Virus record (IMG/VR): IMGVR_UViG_3300022407_001199
Location: 1 to 59,520 of that record
Length of the DNA: 59,520 nt
Reading direction: 5' to 3' (one strand)
Source of the DNA: a virus
Lineage: Duplodnaviria; Caudoviricetes
This document shows positions 1,145 through 17,603 of the stretch, in pieces (the stretch's first letter is position 1; every line of letters begins with the position of its first letter). Both the position numbers and the translations under genes were made by a program. Under the pieces are notes generated by a model that was not told the origin of the DNA, searched no databases, and was given only the letters and a program-made list of their open reading frames with translations.

Positions 1145-1714
1145 ATGGACGCACAATTCCCTGATATAGAGCAGAACGTCCCTCTGCCAGACTCTGCAAA
1201 AGAGGCATACCCAGATCTAACCCCACGGGAAGAACTGGATATGCGGGCACGGACAATCAAAATGCTTTCCGATCTCACTGGCCGACCACTCGCGCCAGAT
1301 GGGGGTGATCGAGATGCCGCACGCCGACTTGCAACAGAGATGGTTGACAGTGGCCCAATTCGCCCCGACCTTGCCATATACCCAAACGAAACCATTGCCT
1401 ATCTAGCAGGTCTTGTAGCGCAGTACGACACACAAGTTGTACGAGAGCTTGCAGATCTGAAGAGATTTGTAGTCAATAAGCTTGTCGAAGAGACAGGTCA
1501 CCCCGATGCCAAAATACGGCTGGGTGCATTGAAAGCTTTAGGTGAAGTTGATGGCGTCGATGCTTTCAAGAAGCGTACTGAAGTGACAGTCAAACTTCAG
1601 TCAATAGAGGAAGTAGAGAAGGAACTTCTCGAAACTCTGGCTAAGCTTGAACAGAACACTATCGACGTTAAGATGGTTGAGGTCGTGGAGGAAAATGACA
1701 CAACTGACTCCTGA
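1145..1714 (+). CDS. terS: Putative terminase small subunit
   Basis: Helical 189-aa protein overlapping the start of the large terminase; positional call. Confidence 0.6.
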   Translation: MDAQFPDIEQNVPLPDSAKEAYPDLTPREELDMRARTIKMLSDLTGRPLAPDGGDRDAARRLATEMVDSGPIRPDLAIYPNETIAYLAGLVAQYDTQVVRELADLKRFVVNKLVEETGHPDAKIRLGALKALGEVDGVDAFKKRTEVTVKLQSIEEVEKELLETLAKLEQNTIDVKMVEVVEENDTTDS

Positions 1715-3206
1715 CAAGATATCCAAACTCCGGGCAGCATTACCTACGATGCCCGATGAGTTGAAAAGAAGTACCCTAGATCTCCTTAAGCAATGGGAGG
1801 CTGAGTATTCCTGCGCGAAAAGCAAGGAATCCTTTTTGGATTTCATTGCTAATGTGTATCCTGACTATAAAGTAGGCCCACACCACCGCAAACTTGCCAA
1901 GATATTCGAGGATATCGCTGCTGGTAGGAAGAAAAGGGTGATTGTCAACATCGCCCCACGACACGGTAAGTCAGAATTGATCTCTTACCTTGCTCCTGCA
2001 TGGTTCTTGGGCAAATACCCGCATAAAAAGGTCATCATGGCCTCGCACACTGCGGATCTGGCCGTCAATTTTGGCCGTAGAGTGCGAAATTTGGTCAGTT
2101 CTGACCCCTACAAGACCATTTTTCCTCAAGTTACGCTTCAAGCCGACTCGAAATCTGCCTCTAGGTGGGGTACGAACTTCAATGGCGAGTACTTCGCTAT
2201 TGGTGTGGGTGGTGCACTGGCTGGTCGAGGTGCTGATCTGTTCATTATTGATGACCCACACTCTGAGCAAGATGCAAAACAGGGCAGAGCAGATGTGTTT
2301 TTGCCCGCTTGGGAGTGGTTTCAGTCAGGTCCGTTGCAGCGTTTGATGCCGGGAGGGGCCATCATTGTCGTTATGACAAGGTGGAGTAAGTTGGACTTAA
2401 CAGGCCAACTCGTCAAGCAGATGGTCAACGAGGATGGTGTAGAGCCTTGGGAAGTCGTTGAATTCCCTGCCATCCTGAATGAGAAACCGCTTTGGCCTGA
2501 TTTCTGGCCCTTGGAAGAGCTTTTAGCTAAAAAAGCGGCAATGGATCCCCGGTACTGGCAAGCCCAGTATATGCAAAATCCAGTATCTGAAGAGGGTGCA
2601 CTACTCAAGCGTGAGTGGTGGCGGATATGGGACAAGGAAGATCCGCCCCAGTGTGAGTTTATTATTATGTCTCTTGACGCAGCGCAGGAAGCTTCAACCC
2701 GTGCTGACTATAATGCTCTCACCACATGGGGGGTATTCTTCAACGAAGAAGTCAATAACTTCAACATTATCTTGCTCAACGCTATCAAAAAGCGAATGGA
2801 GTTTCCAGAGCTTAAGAAGTTGGTACTGGAAGAGTATAAAGAGTGGGAGCCCGATGCGTTTATCGTGGAGAAGAAGTCCAATGGCTCGGCGCTGTATCAG
2901 GAGCTTCGCCGCATGGGTGTGCCTGTAGGAGAGTTCACTCCGGGCAAGGGGCAAGACAAAATTTCACGGGTCAACGCTGTTTCGGATCTGTTTTCGTCAG
3001 GTATAGTTTGGGCTCCTGATAGGCGGTGGGCCAAGGAAGTAATGGAAGAGTGCAATGACTTCCCTAGCGGAGAGAATGATGACTTGGTGGACTCCACCAC
3101 TCAAGCCTTGCTGAGATTTAGGCAAGGGGGGTTCTTGCGACTGCCAACTGATGAGCCCGAAGAAGTACAGTTCTTCAAGAGCCGCCGTCACGCTGCATAT
3201 TACTAG
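1695..3206 (+). CDS. terL: Terminase large subunit
   Basis: Walker A APRHGKS, Walker B IIDDP, C-terminal RNase H-like nuclease (SLDAAQ, DDLVDS); ATG 1695 with GGAGG SD preferred over 1647. Confidence 0.95.
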   Translation: MTQLTPDKISKLRAALPTMPDELKRSTLDLLKQWEAEYSCAKSKESFLDFIANVYPDYKVGPHHRKLAKIFEDIAAGRKKRVIVNIAPRHGKSELISYLAPAWFLGKYPHKKVIMASHTADLAVNFGRRVRNLVSSDPYKTIFPQVTLQADSKSASRWGTNFNGEYFAIGVGGALAGRGADLFIIDDPHSEQDAKQGRADVFLPAWEWFQSGPLQRLMPGGAIIVVMTRWSKLDLTGQLVKQMVNEDGVEPWEVVEFPAILNEKPLWPDFWPLEELLAKKAAMDPRYWQAQYMQNPVSEEGALLKREWWRIWDKEDPPQCEFIIMSLDAAQEASTRADYNALTTWGVFFNEEVNNFNIILLNAIKKRMEFPELKKLVLEEYKEWEPDAFIVEKKSNGSALYQELRRMGVPVGEFTPGKGQDKISRVNAVSDLFSSGIVWAPDRRWAKEVMEECNDFPSGENDDLVDSTTQALLRFRQGGFLRLPTDEPEEVQFFKSRRHAAYY

Positions 3207-3228: not shown

Positions 3229-3498
3229 ATGGCTACACAGAAGTTCATGGGCAGACATCAGTTGATTGACCGCTTGTCGGCGCAGATCGGCTCGCGTGAA
3301 ACCGCACTTGAGGTTCTGAAAAAGCGTGGGCACGTAGATGACAAGGGCAACTTGACCGCTGCTGGCAAGAAGCGCGATTCAATGACTGCCGAAGAACGTG
3401 CTTTGGATAGAGCAAGTACAAAATCAGCCTCTGGCAAAAAGCCCACGGCGTTCAAATACAATCCCCGCACTAATCGTGCAACTCTTAAGAAGACTTGA
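3229..3498 (+). CDS. Small basic hypothetical protein, 89 aa
   Basis: ORF fills the terL-portal gap. Confidence 0.7.
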   Translation: MATQKFMGRHQLIDRLSAQIGSRETALEVLKKRGHVDDKGNLTAAGKKRDSMTAEERALDRASTKSASGKKPTAFKYNPRTNRATLKKT

Positions 3499-3499
3499 T

Positions 3500-6070
3500 A
3501 TGGCAACCAACATTGATAAAGGGCTGTATCAAGCCCCACTGGGCCTTGAAGATGCTGGGCAAGGGCAAGAGCCCATTGAGATCGAGATCATTGACCCCGA
3601 AGAAGTGAACATCCGCGCTGGGGATCTGGAACTCTCCATCGAAAAAGGCGAAGAAGACGAGAGCTTTGATGAGAATCTAGCCGAGGAAATGGATGAGGGG
3701 GCCATGTCTGAGATGGCTGGAGACCTCGTTGATGACATAGATAACGACAAGGCTTCACGCAAGGACTGGGAAAAAGCCTACACCGAGGGTCTGAAACTGC
3801 TAGGTTTGCAATACGAGGAACGTACCGAACCTTGGAATGGTGCTTGTGGCGTGTTCCACCCCATGATTACTGAGGCGGTGATCCGGTTCCAGTCAGAGAC
3901 CATCACCGAGACGTTCCCTGCATCAGGGCCAGTACGCACAAAGATTCTCGGCAAGGAGACGCCAGAGAAGAAAGAAGCCGCTGTTCGTGTCGAGGATGAC
4001 ATGAACTATGAACTCACCGAAGTCATGCGGGAGTTCAGGCCAGAACACGAGCGGATGCTATGGAGCCTCCCGGCCACGGGTTCTGCGTTCAAGAAAGTGT
4101 ACTACGACCCATCACTGGGGCGTCAGGTTTCGATCTTTATTCCCGCAGAGGACATACTTCTGCCATATGGTACGTCTGACCTAGACACTTGCTACCGCCT
4201 CACCCATGTGATGCGTAAAACCAAGAACGAGGTGCTGAAGCTGCAACAAGCGGGCTTCTACAGAGATATCGAGTTGCCTGATCCGACTAAGACAACTGAT
4301 GACATCCAGAAAGCCAAGGACAAAGAGACTGGCTTCAGCGACATCAATGATGACCGCCTGACTATCTATGAGTGCCACGTGGATCTTGATCTCAAGGGAT
4401 TTGAGGACAAGGACGACAAAGGCGAAGAAACCGGGATCTACCTCCCATATGTTGTCACTTTAATCAAAGGATCCAATGAAGTCCTTGCTATTAGGCGGAA
4501 CTGGAAAGAGGACGACGACCTCAAACTCAAACGTCAGCACTTCGTCCATTATCAGTACATCCCCGGTTTTGGCGCGTATGGCTTTGGCCTATTCCATCTC
4601 ATCGGAGGATATGCGAAGTCAGCTACTAGCATTATGCGACAGTTGGTTGACGCAGGAACGCTGTCCAACCTACCCGGAGGACTCAAATCCCGAGGACTGC
4701 GAATCAAGGGAGACGACACCCCCATCGCCCCCGGTGAGTGGCGAGATGTAGATATTGGCTCAGGAGCCCTGCGCGACAACCTGTTACCCCTGCCATATAA
4801 GGAACCAAGTGCGGTTCTAGCAGGGCTGCTGGACAAGATCGTTGATGAGGGTCGCCGCTTCGCTGCATCTGCTGATATGAACGTCAGCGATATGTCGGCT
4901 AACGCTCCTGTTGGTTCAACTCTGGCGATCCTTGAGCGGCAGCTTAAGGTGATGACGGCGGTTCAGGCTCGGGTTCACTATTCGTTCAAGCAAGAGCTTC
5001 AGTTGTTGGCCGCAATCATTCGTGACTATACGGATGATATGTATGACTACGACCCCGGCGATGAGACTACGGGAGCCAAGAAGTCAGACTATTCCCACGT
5101 AGACATCATCCCGGTCAGTGATCCTAACGCTGCAACCATGAGTCAGCGTGTGGTGCAGTATCAGGCTGTGATCCAGATGGCGCAGATGGCCCCTGAGATT
5201 TACAACCTCCCACAACTGCACCGTGCCATGTTGGACGTTCTGGGTATCAAGAACGCTGAGAAGCTCGTCCCACTCCCTGACGACATGAAGCCAAAAGATC
5301 CGGTCACGGAGAACATGGACATCCTGAAGTGCGAGCCGCTGAAGGCATTCATCTTCCAAGACCATGAGTCGCATATCCAAGTGCATATGTCGATGACCCA
5401 AGACCCGACGATTACGCAACTGATCGGGCAGAATCCCAAGGCTCAACAGATGATGAGCGCGGGTATGGCTCACATTGCTGAACACGCAGCGTATGCGTAT
5501 CGTCAGAAGATCGAGCAGCAGTTGGGTATGCAGATGCCTCCGGAAGACAGTGAAGTGAAGCTGGATCCAGAAGTCGAGAACGCTATGTCGCAGATGATGG
5601 CTCAAGCAGCGCAGCAAGTGCTTCAGATTAGCAAAACAAATCAAGCGCAACAGCAAGCTCAGCAAGCTCAGCAAGACCCGATTGTTCAGATGCAGCAGCA
5701 AGAATTGCAGCTTAAGCAGCAGGAAATCCAGATCAAGCAGCAGGAATTGCAGATCAAGGCACAAGCTGCTATGCACAAAGCTCAGATGGACGAGAAGAAA
5801 CTCGCTGCTGATACTGCGGCCAAGGCTGATCAGTTGGAGGCTCAAAAGGCCCAGATTGACGGAGAGTTGCAGCTTGGCGCAATGCAAGTTCAGATCAAGA
5901 CCAAATCAGAACAAGACAAGTTGGCTGCTCAACAAGAGCGTGAAGGCACTCGCATGGGTATCGACATCGCTAGGGCCAAGGCGCAAGACAACCAAAACAC
6001 TAGGAAGCAGCGAGTTGATGAGCGCATCAGTGCTGCAAAAGTTAAACAATCTACAAAACCAACTGAATGA
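3500..6070 (+). CDS. Portal protein with Gln-rich C-terminal coiled-coil extension
   Basis: Position after terL; GSAFKKVYYD and FGAYGFGL segments typical of P22-like portals; start at MATNIDK. Confidence 0.88.
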   Translation: MATNIDKGLYQAPLGLEDAGQGQEPIEIEIIDPEEVNIRAGDLELSIEKGEEDESFDENLAEEMDEGAMSEMAGDLVDDIDNDKASRKDWEKAYTEGLKLLGLQYEERTEPWNGACGVFHPMITEAVIRFQSETITETFPASGPVRTKILGKETPEKKEAAVRVEDDMNYELTEVMREFRPEHERMLWSLPATGSAFKKVYYDPSLGRQVSIFIPAEDILLPYGTSDLDTCYRLTHVMRKTKNEVLKLQQAGFYRDIELPDPTKTTDDIQKAKDKETGFSDINDDRLTIYECHVDLDLKGFEDKDDKGEETGIYLPYVVTLIKGSNEVLAIRRNWKEDDDLKLKRQHFVHYQYIPGFGAYGFGLFHLIGGYAKSATSIMRQLVDAGTLSNLPGGLKSRGLRIKGDDTPIAPGEWRDVDIGSGALRDNLLPLPYKEPSAVLAGLLDKIVDEGRRFAASADMNVSDMSANAPVGSTLAILERQLKVMTAVQARVHYSFKQELQLLAAIIRDYTDDMYDYDPGDETTGAKKSDYSHVDIIPVSDPNAATMSQRVVQYQAVIQMAQMAPEIYNLPQLHRAMLDVLGIKNAEKLVPLPDDMKPKDPVTENMDILKCEPLKAFIFQDHESHIQVHMSMTQDPTITQLIGQNPKAQQMMSAGMAHIAEHAAYAYRQKIEQQLGMQMPPEDSEVKLDPEVENAMSQMMAQAAQQVLQISKTNQAQQQAQQAQQDPIVQMQQQELQLKQQEIQIKQQELQIKAQAAMHKAQMDEKKLAADTAAKADQLEAQKAQIDGELQLGAMQVQIKTKSEQDKLAAQQEREGTRMGIDIARAKAQDNQNTRKQRVDERISAAKVKQSTKPTE

Positions 6071-6261
6071 TTACCACCTTCGCACGTGTATTGCGCGACC
6101 AAATACGCACTGATATGAACAACTATACGGACGATATAGCCACGGGCGTCTGCAAAACTTTCGACGAATATCAAAAACTCTGTGGGGTTATTCAGGGTCT
6201 AGCCCTCGCGGAGCGTTACTTACTTGACCTTGCTAAGAAAGTTGAAGAATCCGATGAGTAA
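6067..6261 (+). CDS. Hypothetical protein, 64 aa
   Basis: ATGA-coupled to portal; helical. Confidence 0.75.
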   Translation: MITTFARVLRDQIRTDMNNYTDDIATGVCKTFDEYQKLCGVIQGLALAERYLLDLAKKVEESDE

Positions 6262-6685
6262 CCTCATTCTGCCTCCCGGTCTAATCCTGCCACAGATCCA
6301 ACCACGTGAAACTCAAGAGGAAGATATTCCCCTTGAAGAGCGCGGCAAGTCGCTCCCTGAACCTACGGGTTGGCGCATCTTGTGCATGGTTCCTGATGTA
6401 TCCGACAAGATCGAGGGCACTGATCTTGATCTGGTGAAGGCTACCAACTCGCTGCGGCAAGAGGAGCACGCCACCACAGTACTGTTTGTCGTGAAGATGG
6501 GTCCACAAGCCTATCAAGATGTCGATAAGTTTGGTGATACTCCGTGGTGTAAGCAGGGCGACTTCGTGCTCGTCCGCGCCTACTCAGGTACGCGATTCAA
6601 GGTATTTGGCAAGGAGTTCCGCATGATCAATGACGATCAGGTGGAAGGTATTGTGGAAGACCCACGTGGCATTAGCCGCGCTTAA
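6254..6685 (+). CDS. groES: GroES/Cpn10-like co-chaperonin
   Basis: PTGWRIL...VVKMGP...KQGDFVLVRAYSGTRFKVFGKEFRMINDDQVEGIV follows the Cpn10 pattern. Confidence 0.85.
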   Translation: MSNLILPPGLILPQIQPRETQEEDIPLEERGKSLPEPTGWRILCMVPDVSDKIEGTDLDLVKATNSLRQEEHATTVLFVVKMGPQAYQDVDKFGDTPWCKQGDFVLVRAYSGTRFKVFGKEFRMINDDQVEGIVEDPRGISRA

Positions 6686-8910: not shown

Positions 8911-9822
8911 ATGGCAATTTCCCGTGCCCAACTGCTAAAAGAACTGCTCCCCGGCCTGAACGCCTTGTTTGGTCTGGAGTACGCTCGTTACGGCGAAGAG
9001 CATAAAGAACTGTATACGACTGAAAAGTCTGAGCGTTCTTTTGAAGAAGAAACCAAGCTGTCCGGTTTCTCCGCTGCTCCGGTGAAGAACGAAGGTCAAG
9101 CCATCGCGTATGACAACGCGCAAGAAGCGTTCACCGCTCGGTACAACCACGAGACCATCGCTCTGGGCTTCTCCATCACGGAAGAAGCTGTGGAAGACAA
9201 CCTGTATGACAGCCTCTCGGCTCGTTACACGAAGGCTCTTGCTCGCGCTATGGCCTACACCAAGCAAGTCAAGGCTGCTTCCGTTATCAACAACGGTTTT
9301 AGCGCGGCCTATCAAGGTGGTGACGGTCAAGCTCTGTTCAGTACTGCTCACCCACTGGTGAACGGCGCTACCAACAGCAACCGTCCTGCGACCAACGCTG
9401 ACCTGAACGAGACTTCTTTGGAAGCCGCCGTCATTCAGATCGCCGCTTGGACGGATGAGCGCGGTCTGTTGATCGCTGCCAAGCCACGCAAGCTGATCAT
9501 TCCTCCTGCTCTGATGTTCGTTGCTACCCGTCTGTTGGAAACCAGCCTCCGTGTTGGTACTACCGACAACGATATCAACGCACTGAAGAACAACGGTTCG
9601 ATCCCAGAAGGCTATGCAGTCAACCACTTCTTGACCGACAGCAGCGGCTGGTATCTCACCACCGATGTGCCTAACGGTCTGAAGCACTTCGAGCGTTCGC
9701 CACTGGCTAACTCGATGGACGGTGACTTCGATACGGGCAACGTCCGTTACAAGGCCCGCGAGCGTTATTCGTTCGGCTGGTCAGATCCGCTGGGTATGTT
9801 CGGCTCCCCCGGCGTGGCCTGA
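8911..9822 (+). CDS. Major capsid protein (HK97 fold, Mu gpT-like family)
   Basis: AAGGAG SD, strong codon bias, KPRKLIIPPAL and DFDTGNVRYKARERYSFGWSD motifs, followed by a terminator. Confidence 0.9.
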   Translation: MAISRAQLLKELLPGLNALFGLEYARYGEEHKELYTTEKSERSFEEETKLSGFSAAPVKNEGQAIAYDNAQEAFTARYNHETIALGFSITEEAVEDNLYDSLSARYTKALARAMAYTKQVKAASVINNGFSAAYQGGDGQALFSTAHPLVNGATNSNRPATNADLNETSLEAAVIQIAAWTDERGLLIAAKPRKLIIPPALMFVATRLLETSLRVGTTDNDINALKNNGSIPEGYAVNHFLTDSSGWYLTTDVPNGLKHFERSPLANSMDGDFDTGNVRYKARERYSFGWSDPLGMFGSPGVA

Positions 9823-9853
9823 TAGCTAGATAGGGTTGGGGGTTCCCGGCTGA

Positions 9854-9888
9854 AGGGGGTAGGTCACAAGCCTACCCCCTTTTTATTT
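9854..9888 (+). terminator. Rho-independent terminator after the capsid gene
   Basis: agggggtagg-tcacaag-cctaccccct 10-bp stem followed by a T-tract. Confidence 0.85.
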
Positions 9889-10503: not shown

Positions 10504-10764
10504 ATGGCGATCACCAATCCAAGCCCCACTTTCCCGCAGTTCCCCGGTGACGCAGTTGCAGTCACCAAGAACAACACCACCCGATTCCCGCCGTCTGTCA
10601 TTTATGTTGGCGGCACTGGCGATGTGAGCGTGGTTACCTCTCAGGGGAACAATGCCTTCTTTAAGGGCGTTCCAACTGGTGCAGTGATCCCGGTGCGTGT
10701 TATCGGCGTAAACGACACCACTGGTGGGACTACCAGCGCAACCGACATGATCAGGATCTTCTGA
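10504..10764 (+). CDS. Small structural protein, 86 aa (possible head-spike base)
   Basis: AGGAG SD; IYVGGTGDV...FKGVPTGAVIPVRV pattern seen in phage head-spike base proteins. Confidence 0.65.
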   Translation: MAITNPSPTFPQFPGDAVAVTKNNTTRFPPSVIYVGGTGDVSVVTSQGNNAFFKGVPTGAVIPVRVIGVNDTTGGTTSATDMIRIF

Positions 10765-11423
10765 TGTCGTTCGGCTTTGGCCTCTCCGTACCCAACCTGC
10801 GAAAGGTTGGCGGGGCTGCTCCTTTTGTTCCGGTGACGCTGGTACAAGAGAATTGGGCGTCGCCATTAACGGGCAGTGTAAGCGGCAGAACCCCCTCCCC
10901 AATCAACTCTGGTGGCGGGACTTGGCAAATCGTTGCCACCGAAGGTGTGGTTGTGTATGAGTACGGGAACGCAAGAATGCTTGCGGGAGACCCCCCAGCC
11001 GGGGTTGGGACATTCAGGCATTCGGTTCAACTCACAAACGCTACGATATCTTCGACCTATTCTGGAGAAGCTGACGCCCCCTCAGACATCCTTGTCTGGG
11101 CGCGTTCTACCCCCGGCCCTACTGGTGAAATAACACAGGGGTATTATCTTGTTATAGGGCCAACTGGTGTATACCTCTACAAGCGATTTGCAGGGGATGA
11201 CACTTTAATAGTAACAGCGCTTTGTTCCCCTTATGGGGCAATAACTTCCTTCACCGTGAGCGGGACAACACTTACAGTCGTTGTGGACGAGGTACAAGTC
11301 ATTCAAACGGTGGACACTTCTATCACCTCTGCGGGGTATTTTGGATGTTCCGTCTCAACAACTTACGGCGCAGATAGTTACGTGTACACCTATGTTGGCC
11401 CCATCACTATTCAAACAGCGTAA
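10764..11423 (+). CDS. Putative head-fibre/lectin-like beta-sandwich protein
   Basis: TGATG coupling; MSFGFGLS N-terminus; beta-rich. Confidence 0.6.
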   Translation: MSFGFGLSVPNLRKVGGAAPFVPVTLVQENWASPLTGSVSGRTPSPINSGGGTWQIVATEGVVVYEYGNARMLAGDPPAGVGTFRHSVQLTNATISSTYSGEADAPSDILVWARSTPGPTGEITQGYYLVIGPTGVYLYKRFAGDDTLIVTALCSPYGAITSFTVSGTTLTVVVDEVQVIQTVDTSITSAGYFGCSVSTTYGADSYVYTYVGPITIQTA

Positions 11424-11440: not shown

Positions 11441-11731
11441 ATGGCTAATTACATCAATAACGGCAATCTGGCCCCGGAGCTTTTGGAGTCTAACTTCAAA
11501 GCTATCATCTCTCCGGTGATCAACTTCAAGGCAACGCTGCTGTCTGGCACGAACGCAGATGTTCAGGTTGTGGGAGACGATGGCGTGGTGTACCTTACGT
11601 TTACGTTGGATACGCTGAACACCCCGATTGCTTCGGGGCTCGTCACCAACCTCGCACCAAGGCTGAAGTTCGTAGTGACTTCCGGTGAAGGCTCTGGCCG
11701 CTTCAAGATTGAATTGGGTGCGAGCATCTAA
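11441..11731 (+). CDS. Hypothetical structural protein, 96 aa
   Basis: ORF, TAATG-coupled to the next gene. Confidence 0.7.
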   Translation: MANYINNGNLAPELLESNFKAIISPVINFKATLLSGTNADVQVVGDDGVVYLTFTLDTLNTPIASGLVTNLAPRLKFVVTSGEGSGRFKIELGASI

Positions 11732-11750
11732 TGGCTAATTCAGTAACACT
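11711..11750 (+). repeat. Repeat A copy 1 (copy 2 at 13540-13579)
   Basis: 36/40 identity; the last 25 nt (atctaatggctaattcagtaacact) are identical. Confidence 0.9.
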
Positions 11751-13506
11751 TGGGGCAGCGTCCCGAATCAATTCAGGGGCTAGTACGATCCCTGTGCCTA
11801 TTGGCAACACAGGTGTCGAGGGGGTGATTTTTTCTGCTCGGCTAGACACCCCGAGTCCAGCATCAACCGCCAGCGTAACTCCAAATACTCCAGAAGCAGG
11901 TCAGTATACACTGGTGTATACTAGACTTTTTGAGCATACTGTATTAAATAGCACGGGCTCATATACATCATTTGGTAACGGAATACCCGCGCTCGCATTT
12001 AATTCTGTGACTGGCTCTTATATGCTTGCGGGGGTTCAAGGAAATACGGTTAGCGCGGTTGCCTCCCCATCCAGTAGAGATGTCACGCAAGCGGGTTGGG
12101 TCAAGACGACGCTAACCCCCGCGTTCAATGCTGTTGGCATTGATGATGCGGTCAGTTCGGCCTCTACTCTTACGGCTACCGCAGACCTTGGTAAGGCACT
12201 TTATCCAATTACCGCAGCCGCAGCGTCGCGAGTTGGGCAAGCATTTATTAAACGATCTGCTGGGCGAGGAAGAGTTTGGTTTACGCTAGATGGCGGCACA
12301 AGTTGGACAGACGTTACATCGTTTGTTGGAAGTTCGTATAAAAAAATCAACACTACTAGCGGAGTTATAAACCCATCTATAGGGTTTATGCTTGAATACT
12401 CTGGCGATGCAATTATTGTAGATGCGATTTCAGTTACGACTAACGGCTTTCCTTCTGCTACAGACCCCATCTTTAACGCTGCTAACCAGATTCAGCAACA
12501 GTCGTTGGGGTGGACAGGCGCACGCGCCGCCTCATCATCATCTAGTTTTTCCGTAAGCGCAACTATTTATATAGAGCCGGGGTTTGTTCCGGGCGGAAAT
12601 ATAGTACTTTCCACCCCTAGTGGTACTGGTCAATTTATTATAAATTGGGGGGCTTTAAACAATAACTTGAATTTGCAGATGTCCAATACATCGACAGGTT
12701 CATTTTTTCTTAACCCCCCGCTGGGGCTTGCATGGCGAGATAGTGGCGTAGGTATTCCTGTAGGTATTCCAACAGACATAAAAATGGTTTGGAGTGGCGT
12801 TACTGCATATGCTTACATTAACGAGAGATTAAGCGCCATATTTCAAAACACTACCACTGGCATAGGGGCAGGCAACGATATTACAACTTTAAATAATATA
12901 GGATTGACGCTAACTAACGGCAATCGCCTGTCTAATTTGCGAGTGTGTGAGTGGTCTGGAAAGACCATCACGCTACTTGGTGATTCTTTCTCCGCTACCG
13001 AGTCATTCCGACAAAATATACTCAAGCAAACTCCCAAAGAGTGCGTTGTTATTCAACAAGCATCTGGGGGGGCAACAACTACCACGTTAATTGCTGGGCT
13101 TACAGGTGACATACAGTATTCAGTTCAAGCAAGCACGGCAGACACATGGCTGGTGCTTTGGATCGGGACGAATGATTTTGGGGCGAATGCCACAGTCGCT
13201 GCCACGCTTGCTAATATGCAAACCATTGTCAACGGGGTTCTTGCACTTAACCCCGCTACAAAAATTGTCTGTGTCACAGTGCCTGTGTATCGCGCCGCTG
13301 CGTATCTTACGGGTATTACAGAGGCAGAGTTTACGGCGCGGGTACTGAGTTTTAACTCACAACTGTCTTCCTTGGTAGGCATTTATGCGGTTGCAGAAAT
13401 TAACTATGCGGCAACTGCGCTTGCATCGTATTACAGTGATGGCCTTCATCCCAAGTACAAATACAATCCAGAGATTACAAGAAAAATCATTGCGGTGATG
13501 AAGTAA
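11731..13506 (+). CDS. Virion spike/fibre protein with C-terminal SGNH/GDSL esterase domain
   Basis: LLGDSFS (block I), ASGGAT (II), IGTND (III), DGLHP (V); preceded by a LamG-like beta region. Confidence 0.8.
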   Translation: MANSVTLGAASRINSGASTIPVPIGNTGVEGVIFSARLDTPSPASTASVTPNTPEAGQYTLVYTRLFEHTVLNSTGSYTSFGNGIPALAFNSVTGSYMLAGVQGNTVSAVASPSSRDVTQAGWVKTTLTPAFNAVGIDDAVSSASTLTATADLGKALYPITAAAASRVGQAFIKRSAGRGRVWFTLDGGTSWTDVTSFVGSSYKKINTTSGVINPSIGFMLEYSGDAIIVDAISVTTNGFPSATDPIFNAANQIQQQSLGWTGARAASSSSSFSVSATIYIEPGFVPGGNIVLSTPSGTGQFIINWGALNNNLNLQMSNTSTGSFFLNPPLGLAWRDSGVGIPVGIPTDIKMVWSGVTAYAYINERLSAIFQNTTTGIGAGNDITTLNNIGLTLTNGNRLSNLRVCEWSGKTITLLGDSFSATESFRQNILKQTPKECVVIQQASGGATTTTLIAGLTGDIQYSVQASTADTWLVLWIGTNDFGANATVAATLANMQTIVNGVLALNPATKIVCVTVPVYRAAAYLTGITEAEFTARVLSFNSQLSSLVGIYAVAEINYAATALASYYSDGLHPKYKYNPEITRKIIAVMK

Positions 13507-13509
13507 ATC

Positions 13510-13560
13510 ATGGCTAAGAAAACACCCTCACTGGCTTTGAAATTGGGAGCAAGTATCTAA
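13510..13560 (+). other. Chimeric 16-aa mini-ORF MAKKTPSLALKLGASI (recombination scar)
   Basis: First 9 aa match the start of gene 15165; last 5 aa plus stop match the end of gene 11441. Confidence 0.85.
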
Positions 13561-15161
13561 TGGCTAATTCAGTAACACTAAACAATGCGGCAGCAATCGG
13601 CACTGGCGGCGCTGCTGTCGGTCTAGAGGTCTGGGCTCCCGGACGCACTTATGCCGTTGGCGCACGGACGATTTCCCCCAGTGGGCGTCCTATCGTTTGC
13701 CGTGTCGCACACACTTCTGCATCCACGTTTAACGCTACCAGATGGACGTATCCCGGCCCGCTTAATGCGACGATTGTTGACTTTACCCTGCTTCCAGACG
13801 GTAATATCGCAACCACAGAGCCTGCTTTCGGGTCTGTTTCATCCTTTGGGGTGGCAGATCAGTATCTATATGGATACGTTATTAAAGATGGTGCTGCTCA
13901 AGACTGGAGAGCGGACAACCCAGCAAACGGCGCTCCACCGTCACAAAGTTACTTTACCTCGTATTTGCCTGATACGACAGAAAACATTAAGCATTTGTGG
14001 ATTGAGTATGAGGTCTCAGCCGCAACACCCACTGCCCTCAACGGGGGGATGACGCTTATTTTGCAACGGCGTGATGCCGATGAAACTGGCGGTATTTCTG
14101 CGGGCGTTCACTGGCAGTTGTATGGGCAGCAGTACCCAACTCCAGCCAATAGCGGCGCTCCTGATTGGCCTACAGGGTCATACGGCCTCCCCGCAATGCC
14201 AACCTTTGCAACGGGTTCTATTGCAGCGGGCACTACCTCAAACCCAAACAATCAAATTACTTTTTCGGGTGTTACCGGGACTATTGTTCCCGGACTTGAA
14301 CTGACTGGGGTTACAGGCGGTTCATTCTTACAATTTAACGCGCAATACGGAACAGATTCTGGTAACAATGTCCCTGCAAACATCCTTATAATTACTGGAC
14401 AAGTTTCTGGCACGGTTGGTGGGGCGGGCGTTTACACCCTAAGTATGTCAAATGTGGGTACTGCGGCGACAGCAACAGGGTTCTACGCATGGGTTCAAAA
14501 TGGCCCAGTCGTTAAGCCGCCATATCCTGTTATAGGCCGAAGAATTCGAGTTGAACTTGTTATAGATCATTCGTCAGGCGCCATGTATGGGTATGTTGAC
14601 GGTATTATGTGCGCTCATTGGCGCAATACTGGCAATACGGCATATACGTCATATAAGGGGATGTTTGAGAGTATGAGCATATACACAAAAGTATATGCTT
14701 TCGGCGTGTCTGCACATTTCCCAGAATTTCACACCAGTGATCGGCAAAGACTGCCCTACTTTAACCCAAATGGCTATTCTGGAAATTTAGCAGCAGTTAA
14801 CTATGCGGTAACTACTTCGTGGGTGTTGGCGTATGCAGTAAAGGTTGGGTTTGGTTCGTCAGGAATGGTGGAAGTTTTCTTTAACCCCTTTATTATTTGT
14901 ACATCGGGCACTATGTACATGGATTTGTCTACAACTACTGCTGCGCCAGCAGCATACCCCTACCCAATGAAAATGGGCAATCAAGGAACCCAGTGTCGCG
15001 TGCCATTTTCTCAGTACTATCACGGAACCCCCGGCACAGTTGCGGAGGTTGGAATCTGGGTTAAATCTGATGGGTCGGGCTCTATCGGAGACCCCAATCA
15101 AATGAGTGGCAGTGGGCCGCGCTGGCGTCCTGTTACAAAAATCAATCCAAGCACATTCTAA
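13560..15161 (+). CDS. Second spike/fibre protein with N-terminal CBM5/12-like module
   Basis: Same MANSVTL start as gene 11731; WAPGRTYAVG...CRVAHTS...W pattern; beta-rich body. Confidence 0.7.
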   Translation: MANSVTLNNAAAIGTGGAAVGLEVWAPGRTYAVGARTISPSGRPIVCRVAHTSASTFNATRWTYPGPLNATIVDFTLLPDGNIATTEPAFGSVSSFGVADQYLYGYVIKDGAAQDWRADNPANGAPPSQSYFTSYLPDTTENIKHLWIEYEVSAATPTALNGGMTLILQRRDADETGGISAGVHWQLYGQQYPTPANSGAPDWPTGSYGLPAMPTFATGSIAAGTTSNPNNQITFSGVTGTIVPGLELTGVTGGSFLQFNAQYGTDSGNNVPANILIITGQVSGTVGGAGVYTLSMSNVGTAATATGFYAWVQNGPVVKPPYPVIGRRIRVELVIDHSSGAMYGYVDGIMCAHWRNTGNTAYTSYKGMFESMSIYTKVYAFGVSAHFPEFHTSDRQRLPYFNPNGYSGNLAAVNYAVTTSWVLAYAVKVGFGSSGMVEVFFNPFIICTSGTMYMDLSTTTAAPAAYPYPMKMGNQGTQCRVPFSQYYHGTPGTVAEVGIWVKSDGSGSIGDPNQMSGSGPRWRPVTKINPSTF

Positions 15162-15162
15162 G

Positions 15163-15191
15163 TCATGGCTAAGAAAACACCTTCACTGGCT
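15163..15191 (+). repeat. Repeat B copy 2 (copy 1 at 13508-13536)
   Basis: tcatggctaagaaaacacc[c/t]tcactggct, 28/29 identity. Confidence 0.9.
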
Positions 15192-15419
15192 GTTGGGCGG
15201 GGAGAAAAACTCCCCGTATCCAAAGGCGCTGGCTTGACCGCTAAGGGAAGAGAGAAATACAATGCTGCCACAGGCAGCAACCTCAAAGCTCCCCAGCCTG
15301 AAGGTGGCCCGCGCAAGAAGTCCTTCTGTGCTCGCATGAGCGGTATGCCGGGGCCGATGAAAGACGAGAAGGGTCAACCCACTCGCAAAGCCGCATCTCT
15401 CAAACGATGGAAGTGCTGA
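15165..15419 (+). CDS. Small basic phage protein (SFCARM...RWKC type)
   Basis: GLTAKGR...RKKSFCARMSG...LKRWKC pattern common in aquatic phages. Confidence 0.75.
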   Translation: MAKKTPSLAVGRGEKLPVSKGAGLTAKGREKYNAATGSNLKAPQPEGGPRKKSFCARMSGMPGPMKDEKGQPTRKAASLKRWKC

Positions 15420-15420
15420 A

Positions 15421-15609
15421 ATGAAACAAGAAGCTCTTGAGGCTACCAAGCACGTGCTTGATGCCGTGTCTTTCGTAACCGTAGTGGGCACACTTGTGAA
15501 CGTCCTTCCATCTATCGCCGCTGCATTTACCATAGTTTGGACAGCCTTCCGCATCTGGGAGACTGACACCGTCCGCGACTGGACTAACCGGAAGAAAGAC
15601 CAATCATGA
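15421..15609 (+). CDS. Small membrane protein (holin-like)
   Basis: Long hydrophobic core with a charged C-terminus. Confidence 0.6.
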   Translation: MKQEALEATKHVLDAVSFVTVVGTLVNVLPSIAAAFTIVWTAFRIWETDTVRDWTNRKKDQS

Positions 15610-15800
15610 AGACCAAGACACCTCTCCCCCCATTTATTCAAAAGATGATGGCCGCTAAAGCTGGCGCTAAGGATGCCCCTAAGAAGGGTGTGACCAAGAT
15701 GGCTAAGGGCGGCTGCGCTATGGCTAAAGGCGGCGGCATCGAGACCAAGGGTAAGACCAAGGGCAAGATGATCAAGATGAAGAGCGGCGGCGGCTGCTAA
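15606..15800 (+). CDS. Small Lys-rich protein with MAKGG repeats
   Basis: ATGA coupling; MAKGG x2 and MKSGG. Confidence 0.7.
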   Translation: MKTKTPLPPFIQKMMAAKAGAKDAPKKGVTKMAKGGCAMAKGGGIETKGKTKGKMIKMKSGGGC

Positions 15801-15809
15801 GGAACCATC

Positions 15810-16067
15810 ATGGCTGACGAACAACCAAAAGGTAAGCGGGTTCCCGGCACAAACACATTCGATGTGCAAGAGCCGCCCCCCAAAAAGAAATACTACCCCG
15901 AGGACGAGCTTGGTACGGGTATTCTGATTGATGGTAAGCAGATGAAGCCTACGTCAAAACCAGCCCCTAAGCCTGATTCAAAGCCTATGAAGAAGATGGC
16001 TAAGGGCGGCGTTACTCGTGCTGACGGGTGTGTCCGTAAAGGGCGCACTAAAGGCAAAATGGTATGA
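15810..16067 (+). CDS. Small basic protein with MAKGG motif
   Basis: AAGGA SD; C-terminus KGRTKGKMV parallels KGKTKGKMI of the upstream gene. Confidence 0.7.
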   Translation: MADEQPKGKRVPGTNTFDVQEPPPKKKYYPEDELGTGILIDGKQMKPTSKPAPKPDSKPMKKMAKGGVTRADGCVRKGRTKGKMV

Positions 16068-16345
16068 GAGCCAGTCGCGGCATGGGTGCTATCAGCCCCT
16101 CCAAGATGCCGGGGGCAAAGAAGAAAGCTCGCCGCGACGATACTGACTTCGCGCAGTACGCCGAAGGTGGCGAGACCAAGAATTGGATCGCTGGCGCTAT
16201 CAAGAAGCCCGGAGCTTTACGTAAGCAACTTGGCGCTAAAGAAGGTCAGCCGATCCCCGCTAAGAAGTTGGCGAAAGCTGCTTCTGCTCCGGGTAAACTA
16301 GGACAACGTGCGCGTTTGGCGCAAACGCTTAAGGGGATGAAATAA
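16064..16345 (+). CDS. Small basic protein with YAEGG motif
   Basis: ATGA coupling; WIAGAIKKPGALR...RARLAQTL segment. Confidence 0.75.
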   Translation: MRASRGMGAISPSKMPGAKKKARRDDTDFAQYAEGGETKNWIAGAIKKPGALRKQLGAKEGQPIPAKKLAKAASAPGKLGQRARLAQTLKGMK

Positions 16346-16911
16346 TGGGTGCTGGTGGCATGAAAAGACCGGGAGCGGGTATGCCTCCTATGCAGAGACC
16401 GGGGAACCCAATGCAGAAGCAAGGTGGTCCGATGCAGAATTTACCCCCCGCAATTCAGCAAGCAATAGCGGCGCGGCAGATGGGCAAGCAAGGCGGTTCA
16501 ATGCAGCAGATGCCACCGCAAATGCCACACCAGATGCAGCAGAACCCTATGCAGCAGATGCAACAATTTCCGCAGATGCAGAAGCAAGGCGGTATGGATG
16601 GGCTTATGGGTCCGCAAGGCGGGCCAATGCAGCAGGGTATGGCTGGCGGTAAGGGCGGTATGCCCGGAGCCCAGAACCCTATGCAGCAGGGGCAAATGAT
16701 GCAGAACCCTATGCAGCAGAGTTTTATGCAGCAACAAAACCCGATGATGCGTAATCAAATGCCGCCTATGGGTCAGCAAGGCGCGGCTGGCGGTAAGGGC
16801 GGTATGCCCGGAGCAGGACCAGCCCCGAACGCTATGCAGCAGTTCTCGCAGCAGCAAAACATGGCAGGGCTGATGCAACCTCAACAGTCGTCACTTAACT
16901 CGTTGCAATAA
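16345..16911 (+). CDS. Gln/Met/Pro/Gly-rich low-complexity protein, 188 aa
   Basis: TAATG-coupled at both ends; internal 30-bp exact repeat at 16641-16670 and 16785-16814. Confidence 0.7.
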   Translation: MGAGGMKRPGAGMPPMQRPGNPMQKQGGPMQNLPPAIQQAIAARQMGKQGGSMQQMPPQMPHQMQQNPMQQMQQFPQMQKQGGMDGLMGPQGGPMQQGMAGGKGGMPGAQNPMQQGQMMQNPMQQSFMQQQNPMMRNQMPPMGQQGAAGGKGGMPGAGPAPNAMQQFSQQQNMAGLMQPQQSSLNSLQ

Positions 16912-17603
16912 TGGCTACCTCCGGTACTTCAGCCTTTAATCTTGATCTGACCGAACTGGTCGAAGAAGCATTCGAGCGTTGTGGTGCGGAACTTCGTTCA
17001 GGTTACGATCTCAAGACTGCAAGGCGTAGTCTCAATTTGCTTTTTGCTGATTGGGCTAATCGCGGGATTAACCTATGGACTGTTGCTCAGTCTTCTATCA
17101 CCCTTATTCCGGGCACTGCGACGTACTTTCTCCCGCTTGATACCGTAGATCTGCTTGAACACGTTATCCGTACTGGCGCAGGGAATGTCTCTACGCAAGC
17201 AGACTTGACGATCACGCGCATCTCTGTATCCACCTACGCTACGATCCCTAACAAGTTGAGTCAGGCTAGACCCATTCAGGTCTACATCGACAGACAAGCG
17301 GTTGTTCCAACCATTACTGTTTGGCCTATCCCAGATGCTTCGCAAACCTACACCTTCGTGTATTGGTATCTTCGCCGTATCCAAGATGCTGGCACTGGCG
17401 TGAACACGATGGATGTGCCGTTCCGGTTTATCCCCTGCATGGTTGCAGGTCTGGCCTACTACCTCGCGCTGAAGCTTCCTGATGGGCTGCAACGTCTCGA
17501 TACGCTCAAGGCGCAGTACGATGAAGCTTGGGATCTGGCATCATCTGAAGACCGCGAGAAGGCAGCGATTCGGCTCGTCCCAAGGCAGATGTTCATAGGC
17601 TGA
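16911..17603 (+). CDS. Putative head-tail adaptor (tail tubular protein A-like)
   Basis: Helical termini with a beta core (VWPIPD; VPFRFIPCMVAGLAYYLA). Confidence 0.65.
   Translation: MATSGTSAFNLDLTELVEEAFERCGAELRSGYDLKTARRSLNLLFADWANRGINLWTVAQSSITLIPGTATYFLPLDTVDLLEHVIRTGAGNVSTQADLTITRISVSTYATIPNKLSQARPIQVYIDRQAVVPTITVWPIPDASQTYTFVYWYLRRIQDAGTGVNTMDVPFRFIPCMVAGLAYYLALKLPDGLQRLDTLKAQYDEAWDLASSEDREKAAIRLVPRQMFIG

Follow-up and report, generated by a model that had tools for sequence, protein, structure and literature searches.

Tandem unrelated spikes with a very short conserved N-terminal peptide are known from the K1-5/K1E/SP6 phages (adapter gp37, two tailspikes), relatives of which hold one or the other spike; the tandem spikes of K1-5 attach by a heptapeptide and an undecapeptide (PMC6872550). 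The same source gives precedent for 7-residue docking peptides on second receptor-binding proteins (RBPs) and describes, for the 'anchor-branch' RBPs of the Klebsiella phages KP32 and KP34, a conserved peptide (MALxxLV) on the second RBP, bodies swapped among relatives, and truncated intermediates. In the N4-like phage G7C (gp63.1/gp66), gp63.1 is described as an O-antigen acetyl esterase tailspike; N-terminal parts are conserved, and C-terminal parts have been exchanged among natural isolates by recombination, the breakpoints of which lie at a fixed intergenic structure (bioRxiv 10.1101/542787). Kuravirus SU10 encodes its fibres after the adaptor gene (gp12/gp13) and not between the capsid and adaptor genes (PMC9509320).

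The window analysed here, 59,520 nucleotides of IMG/VR record IMGVR_UViG_3300022407_001199, is the near-complete genome of an uncultured freshwater podovirus-like phage, with terminase, portal, capsid, SU10-type adaptor and ejection proteins. Its locus with two fibre genes that are probably RBP genes, sp1 and sp2, is a clear case of the known reshuffling of host-recognition genes, as in multi-RBP phages with conserved N-terminal docking peptides, and not a new type of switch. Unlike in the K1-5/K1E/SP6 group, sp1 and sp2 carry the same peptide and so probably use one site rather than two, the upstream partner g96 is a beta-sandwich of ~95 residues with no detectable T4 gp10-like domain, and the locus lies between the capsid and adaptor genes. 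In contrast to KP32/KP34, the peptide continues from g96 (fused in P0010, L095 and L096) and sp1 has no detectable branching domain. Like the G7C spike, sp1 ends in an SGNH esterase, a likeness by domain and not by sequence comparison; the exchange unit is the whole gene with its coupling junctions, however, and not a C-terminal domain, and no stem-loop was found at the junction. With SU10 the phage shares the PF24175 adaptor, and in two related loci (L092/L093) the g96 module follows the adaptor as gp12/gp13 do, whereas the fibre island in the window precedes the adaptor, and no homology to SU10 fibres was seen.

The fibre island and its proteins

All features are on the plus strand. A terminator (9852-9882) stands behind the major capsid gene, and the island follows directly, ahead of the adaptor gene (16911-17603; PF24175 SU10_adaptor, E 8.6e-12). 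The island is hypervariable: across the 57 loci with both genes, 0.8 to 6.2 kb separate the capsid gene from the conserved DUF6321 gene. The latter gene (15165..15419, 84 aa; PF19846, 84.3 bits, cut-off 28.5; 595 relatives in IMG/VR) forms the right-hand border, and with five small basic or low-complexity genes it separates the island from the adaptor gene. A neighbouring fibre module begins with g86 (10504..10764, 86 aa), which weakly matches phrog_12296 'tail fiber protein' (E 8.7e-7), has homologues of 51-74% identity in L043, L088 and L094-L096, and is joined by TAATG to the variable fibre-module gene g219 (10764..11423). Contigs from other lakes (X12, X13, X2) all begin to match the window within g219, at 10768; g219 has a homologue in L096 (37%), and its N-terminus MSFG(F/L)G is common to L095 and L088.

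The cassettes are preceded by g96 (11441..11731, 96 aa), a small fibre-module protein whose AlphaFold2 model (pLDDT 80.5) is all-beta and gave no significant structural match. HMMER found 16 relatives, either stand-alone (94-102 aa) or domains within collagen-like fibre proteins with long beta-rich C-terminal parts, one of them 1275 aa long with two g96-like domains. Among the 10 close relatives (53-96% identity), five end in IELGASI and four in a one- or two-residue variant, and the most distant (53%) ends differently. The preliminary description had taken g96 for an upstream core gene; since it occurs in 0 of 80 DUF6321-selected loci, it belongs to an accessory fibre module instead, the place of which varies among relatives: behind the capsid gene, behind DUF6321-g62 (L094) or next to the adaptor gene on its downstream side (L092/L093). 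In all 10 g96-bearing IMG/VR loci (L087-L096) a fibre-like gene stands behind g96 or is fused to it. P0010, L095 and L096 (185-187 aa) unite in one protein g96, the peptide and a domain that L094 encodes in two pieces of 94 and 122 aa (BLASTP E 2e-20). As the two form a single polypeptide in such relatives, g96 and the fibre N-terminus most likely end up together in one fibre; g96 with its TAATG-coupled fibre gene constitutes one module of the island.

The first fibre protein, sp1 (11731..13506, 591 aa), starts with the conserved N-terminal peptide, has a jelly-roll-like domain at about residues 110-250 and carries an SGNH/GDSL esterase domain (416-574) in its C-terminal part. The hallmark of SGNH hydrolases is a set of four conserved blocks, with Ser, Gly, Asn and His as their key residues. 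Residues 416-574 match PF13472 (Lipase_GDSL_2) at 41.6 bits, above the cut-off of 32.9, and contain all four blocks (G417-D418-S419; G446-G447; G479-x-N481-D482, reading GTND; D570-x-x-H573, reading DGLH), which are invariant between sp1 and its 87% identical relative P0005 (PF13472, 42.2 bits); profile and blocks agree in placing sp1 in the SGNH/GDSL family, in line with the esterase originally proposed for the first gene. On sequence grounds, sp1 is a protein with a carbohydrate-binding-like (lectin-like) domain and a putative SGNH esterase. Only the central domain is shared with P0006-P0009, and sp1 relatives start with MVNTVTL or MTNSVTL.

The second, sp2 (13560..15161, 533 aa), is predicted to be all-beta with an unrecognised fold (AlphaFold2 model poor, pLDDT 39). 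It matched no Pfam family; residues 11-65 weakly match phrog_11373 'tail protein', and its relative P0003 (47% identical, same first 22 aa) has a weak CBM5/12-like motif near residues 25-63, while P0002 (52%) has a different N-terminus. BLASTP detected no similarity between sp1 and sp2 past MANSVTL, and scans of IMG/VR and JGI metagenomes returned no relatives of either. As candidates for the two unrelated bodies of a multi-RBP phage, sp1 has lectin-like and esterase domains and sp2 no more than weak tail-protein and CBM5/12-like hints; both are probably fibre, receptor-binding proteins.

What sp1 and sp2 have in common is a peptide of ~16 residues, M-x-x-x-V-T-L-x-x-A-x-x-I-x-x-G, kept whatever follows in the fibre gene; across 6 sequences, which represent 3 unrelated body families, M1, V5, T6, L7, A10, I13 and G16 do not vary. 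It conforms to a docking peptide, i.e. a short N-terminal peptide common to unrelated RBPs, and is embedded in the fused forms as well. Pfam and PHROG searches of g86, g219, g96, sp1 and sp2 yielded no family of the T4 gp10-like branching domain. With the same peptide and only one full g96, the two proteins probably share or compete for one attachment site, which would result in virions with two specificities.

Interleaved repeats and the chimeric scar

The two genes, alike only at their start, are framed by two short direct repeats in the order A-sp1-B-A-sp2-B, an arrangement noticed in the preliminary description and recovered here by repeat search and direct reading. Repeat A consists of the last 6 g96 codons, TAATG and the first 7 sp1 codons (copy 1, 11712..11750), or of a vestigial g96 3' end, TAATG and the first 7 sp2 codons (copy 2, 13541..13579). 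Repeat B runs from a stop codon across a 3-nt spacer into 9 codons from the start of a DUF6321 gene: the stop is that of sp1 in copy 1 (13504..13536) and that of sp2 in copy 2 (15159..15191), where the DUF6321 gene is intact. The copies, 1.7-1.8 kb apart, are identical at 36/39 nt (A) and 31/33 nt (B), with perfect identity over at most 25 nt and 19 nt, respectively. Two exact copies of the 22-mer TAATGGCTAATTCAGTAACACT are present in the window, where none is expected, and 0/100 shuffled controls gave even a 3-mismatch match. The three mismatches in A (GGT/GGA, GCG/GCA, AGC/AGT) and one of the two in B (CCC/CCT) are synonymous; the other (TAAATC/TAAGTC) is intergenic, so that the earlier count of four synonymous mismatches in five holds. 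No interleaved repeats were found in 5 further loci. Junction A is conserved at the nucleotide level in L094, although g96 is only 61% identical there.

Where the inner repeat copies meet lies a mini-ORF of 51 nt and 16 codons (MAKKTPSLALKLGASI*, 13510..13560), an in-frame chimera. In keeping with the preliminary description, the first 9 codons of MAKKTPSLALKLGASI correspond to the beginning of the DUF6321 gene (15165-) and the last 7 to a diverged g96 3' end, which differs from full g96 at 6/21 positions, including two amino-acid changes. The DUF6321 5' copies agree at 26/27 nt and share the codons ACA, TCA, CTG and GCT, a combination absent from the 79 relatives listed, none of which has an extra DUF6321 5' copy like that of the scar. 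The scar ATG lies 3 nt past the sp1 stop, and at its other end the scar is joined to sp2 by a TAATG in which stop and start codon overlap, the very junction that links g96 to sp1, so the coupling to the second gene is preserved as had been stated. By chance alone, such a join would be in frame in 1 of 3 cases. K1E and K5 reportedly contain remnants of the lost spike gene; what the present locus has kept is an explicit chimeric scar, in which parts of two flanking genes are joined in frame.

Origin of the tandem

We consider it probable that the tandem goes back to an illegitimate, in-frame unequal crossover that stacked sp1 and sp2 behind one g96. The parents would be single-cassette relatives, g96-sp1-DUF6321 and g96'-sp2-DUF6321, probably meeting in co-infection; the crossover would have been guided by microhomology at most, with the scar as its footprint. 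Being joined in frame, the two gene ends in the scar preserve both native junctions, stop-3 nt-ATG after sp1 and TAATG before sp2, and with these retained, ribosomes leaving sp1 could be relayed to sp2 via the scar. As the cassettes are unrelated, self-duplication is not the source, and most differences between the repeat copies are synonymous, which is what the arrival of one cassette with its flanks from a related phage would produce; the initial suggestion of an allelic cassette captured from a diverged relative is supported on both points. A single-cassette parent type is probably represented by the g96-like P0031 and the sp2-like P0003, each from one ENA contig of 2072 nt, a size that fits 291 + 1548 nt and not sp1, the assignment being made from equal sizes only. 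Likewise, P0028 and the sp1-like P0036 both report a 2274-nt contig.

Other samples carry related arrangements. An X13 contig (3477 nt) and an X2 contig (2873 nt) match the window from 10768/11247 through the scar to 13570, with ~8-10% of letters differing, and then run for 453 and 548 nt, respectively, without a match to sp2; the unmatched part was placed right of 13570 from strand and record coordinates. Depth in X2 is zero over 13806-15140, and sp2-like pieces in X12 and X13 have a depth of 6-8 against 25-27 for sp1. These sequences indicate that sp1 plus scar persists in other lakes with a different gene in slot 2 or, alternatively, a strongly diverged sp2 allele. Different genes in slot 2 behind the same sp1 and scar would point to cassette exchange in nature.

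Replacement behind the scar is also what a two-step origin invokes, in which the cassette and its flanks were first duplicated in tandem and one copy was later replaced by an allelic cassette through homologous recombination. The constancy of sp1 and scar beside a slot 2 that varies among samples speaks for it, as do the nearly identical DUF6321 5' copies with codon choices not found together in the listed relatives. Two events are needed, however, where one is enough, the left homology arm for replacing slot 2 would be the 39-nt scar only, and the divergence of the vestigial g96 tail is easier to understand if the tail arrived with sp2; we regard this origin as unlikely.

Location of the fibres and possible recombination at the repeats

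There is a small chance that sp1 and sp2 belong to the head, as capsid fibres or decoration proteins, and not to the tail as RBPs, in which case stacking would change surface adhesion and not host range proper. The island comes immediately after the major capsid gene with its terminator and ahead of the adaptor gene, whereas the tail fibres of SU10 are encoded after the adaptor, which leaves room for head fibres in the present phage. The tail is favoured by L092/L093, where the g96 module directly follows the adaptor, the place of the long fibres in SU10; by the occurrence of g96-like domains in collagen-like proteins with long beta-rich C-terminal parts; by the weak matches of g86 and the sp2 N-terminus to PHROG 'tail fiber' and 'tail protein'; and by N-terminal docking peptides and esterase domains, which are typical of tail RBPs.

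A broader scheme appears rather improbable: junctions A and B would act as a universal 'socket' in the freshwater phage pool, where g96-RBP-DUF6321 alleles are stacked by unequal crossover, with the scar ORF as translational relay and swaps in slot 2, yielding an integrase-free, growing and shrinking array of RBPs docking on a single g96. A socket of this kind is compatible with the conservation of junction A in L094, with the 25 homogenised nucleotides and with the fact that slot 2 is polymorphic in three other samples.

Very unlikely, in our judgement, is the 'recombinase-free expand/collapse switch' of the preliminary description, by which A x A and B x B exchange would repeatedly collapse the locus to one cassette before re-expansion, tuning host range without a dedicated recombinase. 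Its geometry is correct: the coordinates agree that A x A recombination would delete the esterase gene sp1 and the scar (1829 bp), and B x B the scar and sp2 (1655 bp). At their starts the two genes agree over 25 nt without a difference, even though sp1 relatives vary there and the adjoining g96 tail differs at 3/4 wobble sites, which suggests recent conversion between the A copies, and X12 contigs break exactly at the repeats (11709-13537; 13541-...-15191), with unequal sp1-like and sp2-like depth. Yet RecA- or phage-mediated exchange needs a minimal length of homology to be efficient, and 25 and 19 nt lie close to it or under it; homologous recombination also requires a recombinase. Programmed host-range switches (invertible fibre segments, shufflons, diversity-generating retroelements) have their own recombinase or reverse transcriptase and its target repeats, whereas the repeats here are direct and not inverted, and no invertase, integrase, reverse transcriptase or single-strand annealing protein was found among 54 ORFs scanned against PHROGs (ORFs <100 aa counted within the island only). 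Neither collapsed joint, 11750/13580 or 13536/15192, is among the 15 joints listed of 59, all from contigs, where rare variants are invisible; the scar is still present in relatives ~8% diverged (X13, X2), and depth in X1 is even across both genes: 1817 (sp1), 1534 (junction and sp2) and 1770 (sp2/DUF6321). Re-expansion would need a donor genome, so collapse is not reversible within a lineage. Under the unequal crossover that we favour, the short flanking repeats would be by-products of the event that might permit rare deletion or gene conversion, not a dedicated switch.

An assembly artefact, in which the alternative cassettes of two strains had been merged into a false tandem, was allowed for in the preliminary description and would be conceivable for a metagenome-assembled contig with many co-occurring relatives in the same sample (2076 X1 contig pieces), but it is extremely improbable, as the repeat copies are unlike each other, the B|A junction is novel and in neither single-cassette strain, so that no shared k-mer path makes it, a 1561-nt X1 contig from a different assembler covers 12829-14389 and hence the junction with 0 differences and 0 gaps at a depth of ~1530 (X1 possibly being the source sample of the window and hence not fully independent), and the X13 and X2 contigs, from two other studies, also lead from sp1 through the scar to a MANS start. 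A second X1 contig covers 14421-15278.

In base composition, the AT-richness relative to the core that had been ascribed to both genes is clear for sp1 (GC 0.470, GC3 0.40; rank 4/579 among 1.7-kb windows) and modest for sp2 (GC 0.498, GC3 0.44), against a window mean of 0.513 and 0.52-0.57 in the flanking genes.

Repeats, scar and the two fibre genes

A repeat search bore out the interleaved order A-sp1-B-A-sp2-B given in the preliminary description. Repeat A, which comprises the tail of g96 (the 96-aa gene ahead of sp1), the TAATG junction and the start of the fibre gene, lies at 11712-11750 and 13541-13579 (36 of 39 positions identical); repeat B, which comprises the fibre gene stop, a spacer and the start of the 84-aa DUF6321 gene, lies at 13504-13536 and 15159-15191 (31 of 33 identical). 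Between sp1, a 591-aa SGNH-esterase fibre, and sp2, a 533-aa predicted all-beta fibre, the scar ORF occupies 13510-13560. It is the in-frame chimera that had been described: its first nine codons (ATG GCT AAG AAA ACA CCC TCA CTG GCT) correspond to those of the DUF6321 gene at 15165, one of them synonymously changed, and its last seven with the stop (TTG AAA TTG GGA GCA AGT ATC TAA) to those of g96 (11441-11731) with three synonymous changes, where TTG AAA in the scar and ATT GAA in g96 look like diverged counterparts. The scar starts 3 nt behind the sp1 stop, with the same spacing as DUF6321 behind sp2, and TAATG coupling is kept, as its stop overlaps the sp2 start in the same way as the g96 stop overlaps that of sp1. 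A 22-mer at the sp1 and sp2 starts is identical in both copies, with none expected by chance. Beyond the MANSVTL start, BLASTP found nothing common to the two proteins, whose bodies are unrelated; the AT-richness attributed to both genes is pronounced in sp1 (GC 0.470, rank 4 of 579 genome stretches) and mild in sp2 (GC 0.498).

Because the scar reproduces both native junction types, termination-reinitiation could relay ribosomes from sp1 over the 16 codons to the sp2 start; the in-frame state would arise by chance alone in one of three cases. The sp1/sp2 junction showed no site resembling a promoter or terminator, and the only strong terminator is that at 9852-9882 behind the capsid gene. A second partial copy of the DUF6321 5' end was absent from 79 relatives, and interleaved repeats were absent from the relative loci L088, L090, L092, L094 and L096. 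Searches for the junction itself gave only matches that were rejected: the exact junction-A 19-mer occurred in three IMG/VR loci (L083-L085), all AT-rich and unrelated, and the degenerate junction pattern had no match in IMG/VR and one chance match (L086) in metagenomes.

For sp1, a GDSL_2 domain scored above the Pfam cut-off and all four SGNH blocks are present. Its central domain of about 140 residues is common to four long metagenomic proteins, one with a sub-threshold CBM_4_9 match and two with chance-level BNR (Asp-box) matches (E 0.03-0.13). The sp1 alignment gave 252 pattern matches and no relatives against JGI metagenome contigs, and PDB sequence searches with sp1 and sp2 returned weak, chance-level rows only (E 0.007-0.06). 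No family was assigned to sp2; its residues 11-65 match the PHROG 'tail protein', and its AF2 model (3-row alignment, pLDDT 39.4) was too poor to use. Its relative P0003 is 47% identical overall and keeps the first 22 residues, and P0002 carries the sp2 body with a different N-terminus. Conserved starts with swapped bodies are typical of receptor-binding proteins; on the basis of this pattern and the esterase and tail-protein matches, the label 'receptor-binding cassette' appears reasonable for sp1 and plausible for sp2.

Metagenome contigs, origin of the tandem and the proposed switch

In an independent Logan assembly of run X1, possibly the sample of origin, a contig of 1561 nt extends from within sp1 across the scar into sp2 and covers 12829-14389 with no differences and no gaps; a further X1 contig covers 14421-15278, and depths in X1 are alike (1817, 1534 and 1770). 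Contigs from two other studies (X13, 3477 nt; X2, 2873 nt) span g219, g96, sp1 and the scar with about 8-10% of letters differing. Their match ends at 13570, past the MANS codons, and 453 and 548 nt continue beyond it that are unlike sp2; the placement of these tails on the right-hand side was read from strand and record coordinates and was consistent over five records. X2 has zero depth over 13806-15140, sp2-like pieces in X12 and X13 have a depth of 6-8 compared to 25-27 for sp1-like pieces, and the repeats are the exact points at which X12 contigs break (11709-13537, then from 13541 to 15191). Runs X3-X11, with small word shares, do not enter into this comparison. From the X12, X13 and X2 contigs, we conclude that the scar is older than the ~8% divergence of these relatives and that the second slot is polymorphic. 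The contigs of all four relatives begin to match at 10768, the TAATG junction of the small fibre-island genes g86 and g219, which is another module boundary.

Behind sp1 stand 27 nt from the start of a DUF6321 gene, and in front of sp2 stand 21-24 nt from the end of a g96 gene; both cassettes therefore once stood in a g96-sp-DUF6321 arrangement. The simplest event would be a single unequal, illegitimate crossover between two related genomes, which would have joined DUF6321 codon 9 of the sp1 genome to g96 codon -8/-7 of the sp2 genome and have happened to keep both reading frame and translational coupling; microhomology at the joint amounts to a few bases at most (GCT/T). Between the vestigial and the resident g96 tail, 6 of 21 positions differ, and between the two DUF6321 starts 1 of 27, so the parents were related but distinct; the codon choices common to the two starts do not occur together in the 79 relatives listed. 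The g96-like P0031 and sp2-like P0003 each derive from an ENA contig of 2072 nt, a size that accommodates 291 + 1548 nt but not sp1 as well, and this equality lends indirect support to the existence of a single-cassette sp2 parent. P0028 and the sp1-like P0036 both derive from a 2274-nt contig. A tandem duplication with subsequent allelic replacement would be a route in two steps, and we consider it rather unlikely compared to the single crossover.

The preliminary description had further proposed that A x A and B x B recombination acts as an expand/collapse switch of host range. The geometry is right. Residues 2 and 4 vary in sp1 relatives, and three of four wobble sites are changed in the g96 tail; against this background, the 25 nt of perfect identity at the gene starts hint that the A copies have undergone conversion in the past. 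A working switch, however, is unsupported and in our estimation improbable. Perfect homology extends over 25 and 19 nt only, 1.7-1.8 kb apart, and minimal efficient homology is 20-30 nt or more. The scar persists in diverged relatives, depth in X1 is even, the 54 ORFs scanned included no recognisable annealing protein, invertase or integrase, and a collapsed genome without a donor cannot re-expand. No collapsed joint was found among the 15 of 59 joints shown, where contigs drop rare variants, so that rare deletions could escape. The locus reveals no new class of genetic switch.

That the tandem is an assembly chimera of two strains is very improbable, given the identical second assembly of X1 across the junction, the crossing of the scar in X13 and X2, and a B|A joint for which a graph assembler has no path, because neither single-cassette strain would contain it.

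With the single crossover as the favoured origin, the locus is a clean natural record of a second putative receptor-binding gene being added, and offers a base-pair-resolution view of the gain of a second host-recognition gene in a group of uncultured freshwater phages that is very abundant, its border gene having at least 595 relatives in IMG/VR.

The g96 module and the shared N-terminal peptide

A HMMER search of 1.84 billion representatives yielded 16 relatives of g96. Some stand alone (94-102 aa), P0010 (185 aa) is extended at its C-terminus, and others are domains within large proteins, including one of 1275 aa that contains two g96-like domains, long collagen-like Gly-X-Y repeats and, at its C-terminus, a long stretch rich in beta structure. 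Nine of the ten close relatives are 74-96% identical and one 53%; five end in IELGASI, four in a variant differing by one or two residues, and the most distant one differently. AlphaFold (10-row alignment) predicted a confident all-beta sandwich (pLDDT 80.5). As no Foldseek row reached E 0.001 (best E 0.014 in PDB and 0.0066 in BFVD), g96 remains without a fold family; the weak best rows were CBM36, Ena fibre, C1q/TNF-like heads, and phage collagen-repeat and tail-fibre proteins.

Single-protein scans of IMG/VR gave no close relatives of g96, sp1 or sp2. A g96-like gene is found in ten IMG/VR loci (L087-L096), with a fibre-like gene behind or fused to it in all ten. It lies directly behind the capsid gene (L087-L089), ahead of a g154-like fibre-island gene (L090/L091), behind g219-like genes as in the window (L095, L096), downstream of DUF6321-g62 (L094), or directly behind the adaptor gene (L092/L093). 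This last place is where SU10 has the genes of its long tail fibres (PMC9509320). Relative to DUF6321-g62 and the adaptor, the module shifts place (L094 8561-9653, L096 3911-6896, L092 6302-7910), and because it does so between related phages, the DUF6321 start is a recurrent rearrangement breakpoint.

For the N-terminus, six starts were aligned: sp1, P0005 (MVNTVTL...), P0036 (MTNSVTL...), sp2, P0003 and the 122-aa gene behind g96 in L094 (MGSVTLGSAVAINTGG...). M1, V5, T6, L7, A10, I13 and G16 are invariant across three unrelated bodies; by this alignment, the N-terminus common to sp1 and sp2 is longer than seven residues. In P0010, L095 and L096, the g96 domain, the peptide and an L094-type C-terminal domain form a single ORF of 185-187 aa; in L094, the same domains are split (94 + 122 aa; BLASTP E 2e-20 to the fused forms) at a TAATG junction, the nucleotides of which (AGCATCTAATGG...TCAGTAAC.CTTGG) resemble those of the window. 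Occurrence in split and fused forms is the strongest indication that g96 and the start of the protein behind it probably belong to one physical fibre. A complex prediction with three copies each of g96 and sp1 residues 1-80 scored 0.15 against a mark of 0.32, which is evidence neither way. The g96 beta-sandwich and its 16-residue N-terminal peptide, split and fused, constitute a previously uncharacterised fibre module, which predicts exchangeable receptor-binding neighbours in these metagenomic phages.

The locus resembles those of K1-5/SP6-like and KP32/KP34-like phages in its unrelated bodies, probably enzymatic or binding, short conserved N-terminal peptide and exchange by recombination. 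It differs from such multi-RBP systems in that both genes use the very same peptide, in its partner, a small beta-sandwich in split and fused forms with no T4 gp10-like branching domain detectable, in locus position, and in the preservation of an explicit chimeric scar. K1E and K5 reportedly carry gene remnants. For second RBPs of the K1-5/SP6-like and KP32/KP34-like phages, conserved N-terminal peptides of down to seven residues are the accepted means of docking (PMC6872550). sp1 recalls the esterase tailspike gp63.1 of G7C, among whose relatives spike parts are likewise exchanged in nature (bioRxiv 10.1101/542787).

The post-capsid island and its genome setting

DUF6321 has at least 595 relatives in IMG/VR, of which 80 loci were fetched. 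In the 57 loci with both genes, the capsid gene end and DUF6321 are 0.8 to 6.2 kb apart, and the interval usually contains a g154-like gene and a small 'MQTDVK...FYG' gene, sometimes genes of 250-1432 aa. Homologues of g219, g96, sp1 or sp2 were found in none of the 80 at E 1e-5. Since spacing and content vary and these four genes are absent from all 80, the interval is a hypervariable island with DUF6321 as its conserved right border, and the earlier designation of g96 as the upstream core gene fails.

In L054 and L058, the 'MQTDV...FYG' gene is present in the interval as a tandem pair of paralogues, each of about 161-164 aa and with no visible scar, which shows that tandem stacking occurs also in the island's other gene family. 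In most DUF6321 loci listed, the upstream gene ends in TTC TAT GGC TAA with its stop inside the DUF6321 start (T ATG GCT AAG); this 7-nt overlap is conserved at the nucleotide level in dozens of relatives and absent from the window. In L055 and L079, the DUF6321 match begins at residue 6-7 and DUF6321 forms the C-terminus of a longer protein, as it does in several PHROG families, rather than a separate 84-aa gene. Post-capsid inserts in relatives (MFYVYVYRDP..., MDYPKDRATA...), considered as homing endonucleases driving the shuffling, had no Pfam match at E 0.001, and this reading was discarded.

The window of 59,520 nt is an entire IMG/VR record, linear and estimated to be 94% complete, and the runs in which its DNA occurs carry freshwater or lake metagenome labels. 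A comparison with 50,697 deposited phage genomes gave no close relative; cyanophage records match the DUF6321 gene only (68-80% over at most 200 nt). PHROG and Pfam scans placed the large terminase at 1647-3206, the portal at 3398-6070, the major capsid protein at 8911-9822 and an SU10-type adaptor at 16911-17603. Farther on, the plus strand has genes for tail and virion proteins, for an ejection protein and for a transglycosylase protein, and the minus strand carries the replication genes (primase/helicase, helicase, exonuclease and DNA polymerase). The strong hairpin at 9852-9882, right behind the major capsid gene, resembles an intrinsic terminator (13-bp stem with 7 GC pairs, T-run) and probably determines how strongly capsid and fibre genes are expressed relative to each other. 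At 15421-16911, five small Lys/Gly-rich genes with a common KMAKGG motif (repeat family D1) precede the gene of a 188-aa low-complexity protein rich in Gln, Met and Pro, and may encode packaged basic or internal proteins; at 16476-16777, contigs from all four runs carry internal size variants (skips, back-steps). A 2236-aa ORF at 33123-39833, with an LPD38 domain only (PF18857, residues 1934-2114, E 2.6e-15) and no PHROG match, is probably a giant virion or ejection protein. Between the portal and the scaffold-region genes, a 153-aa ORF (6224-6685) has a weak GroES-like PHROG match (phrog_3188, E 1.4e-7).
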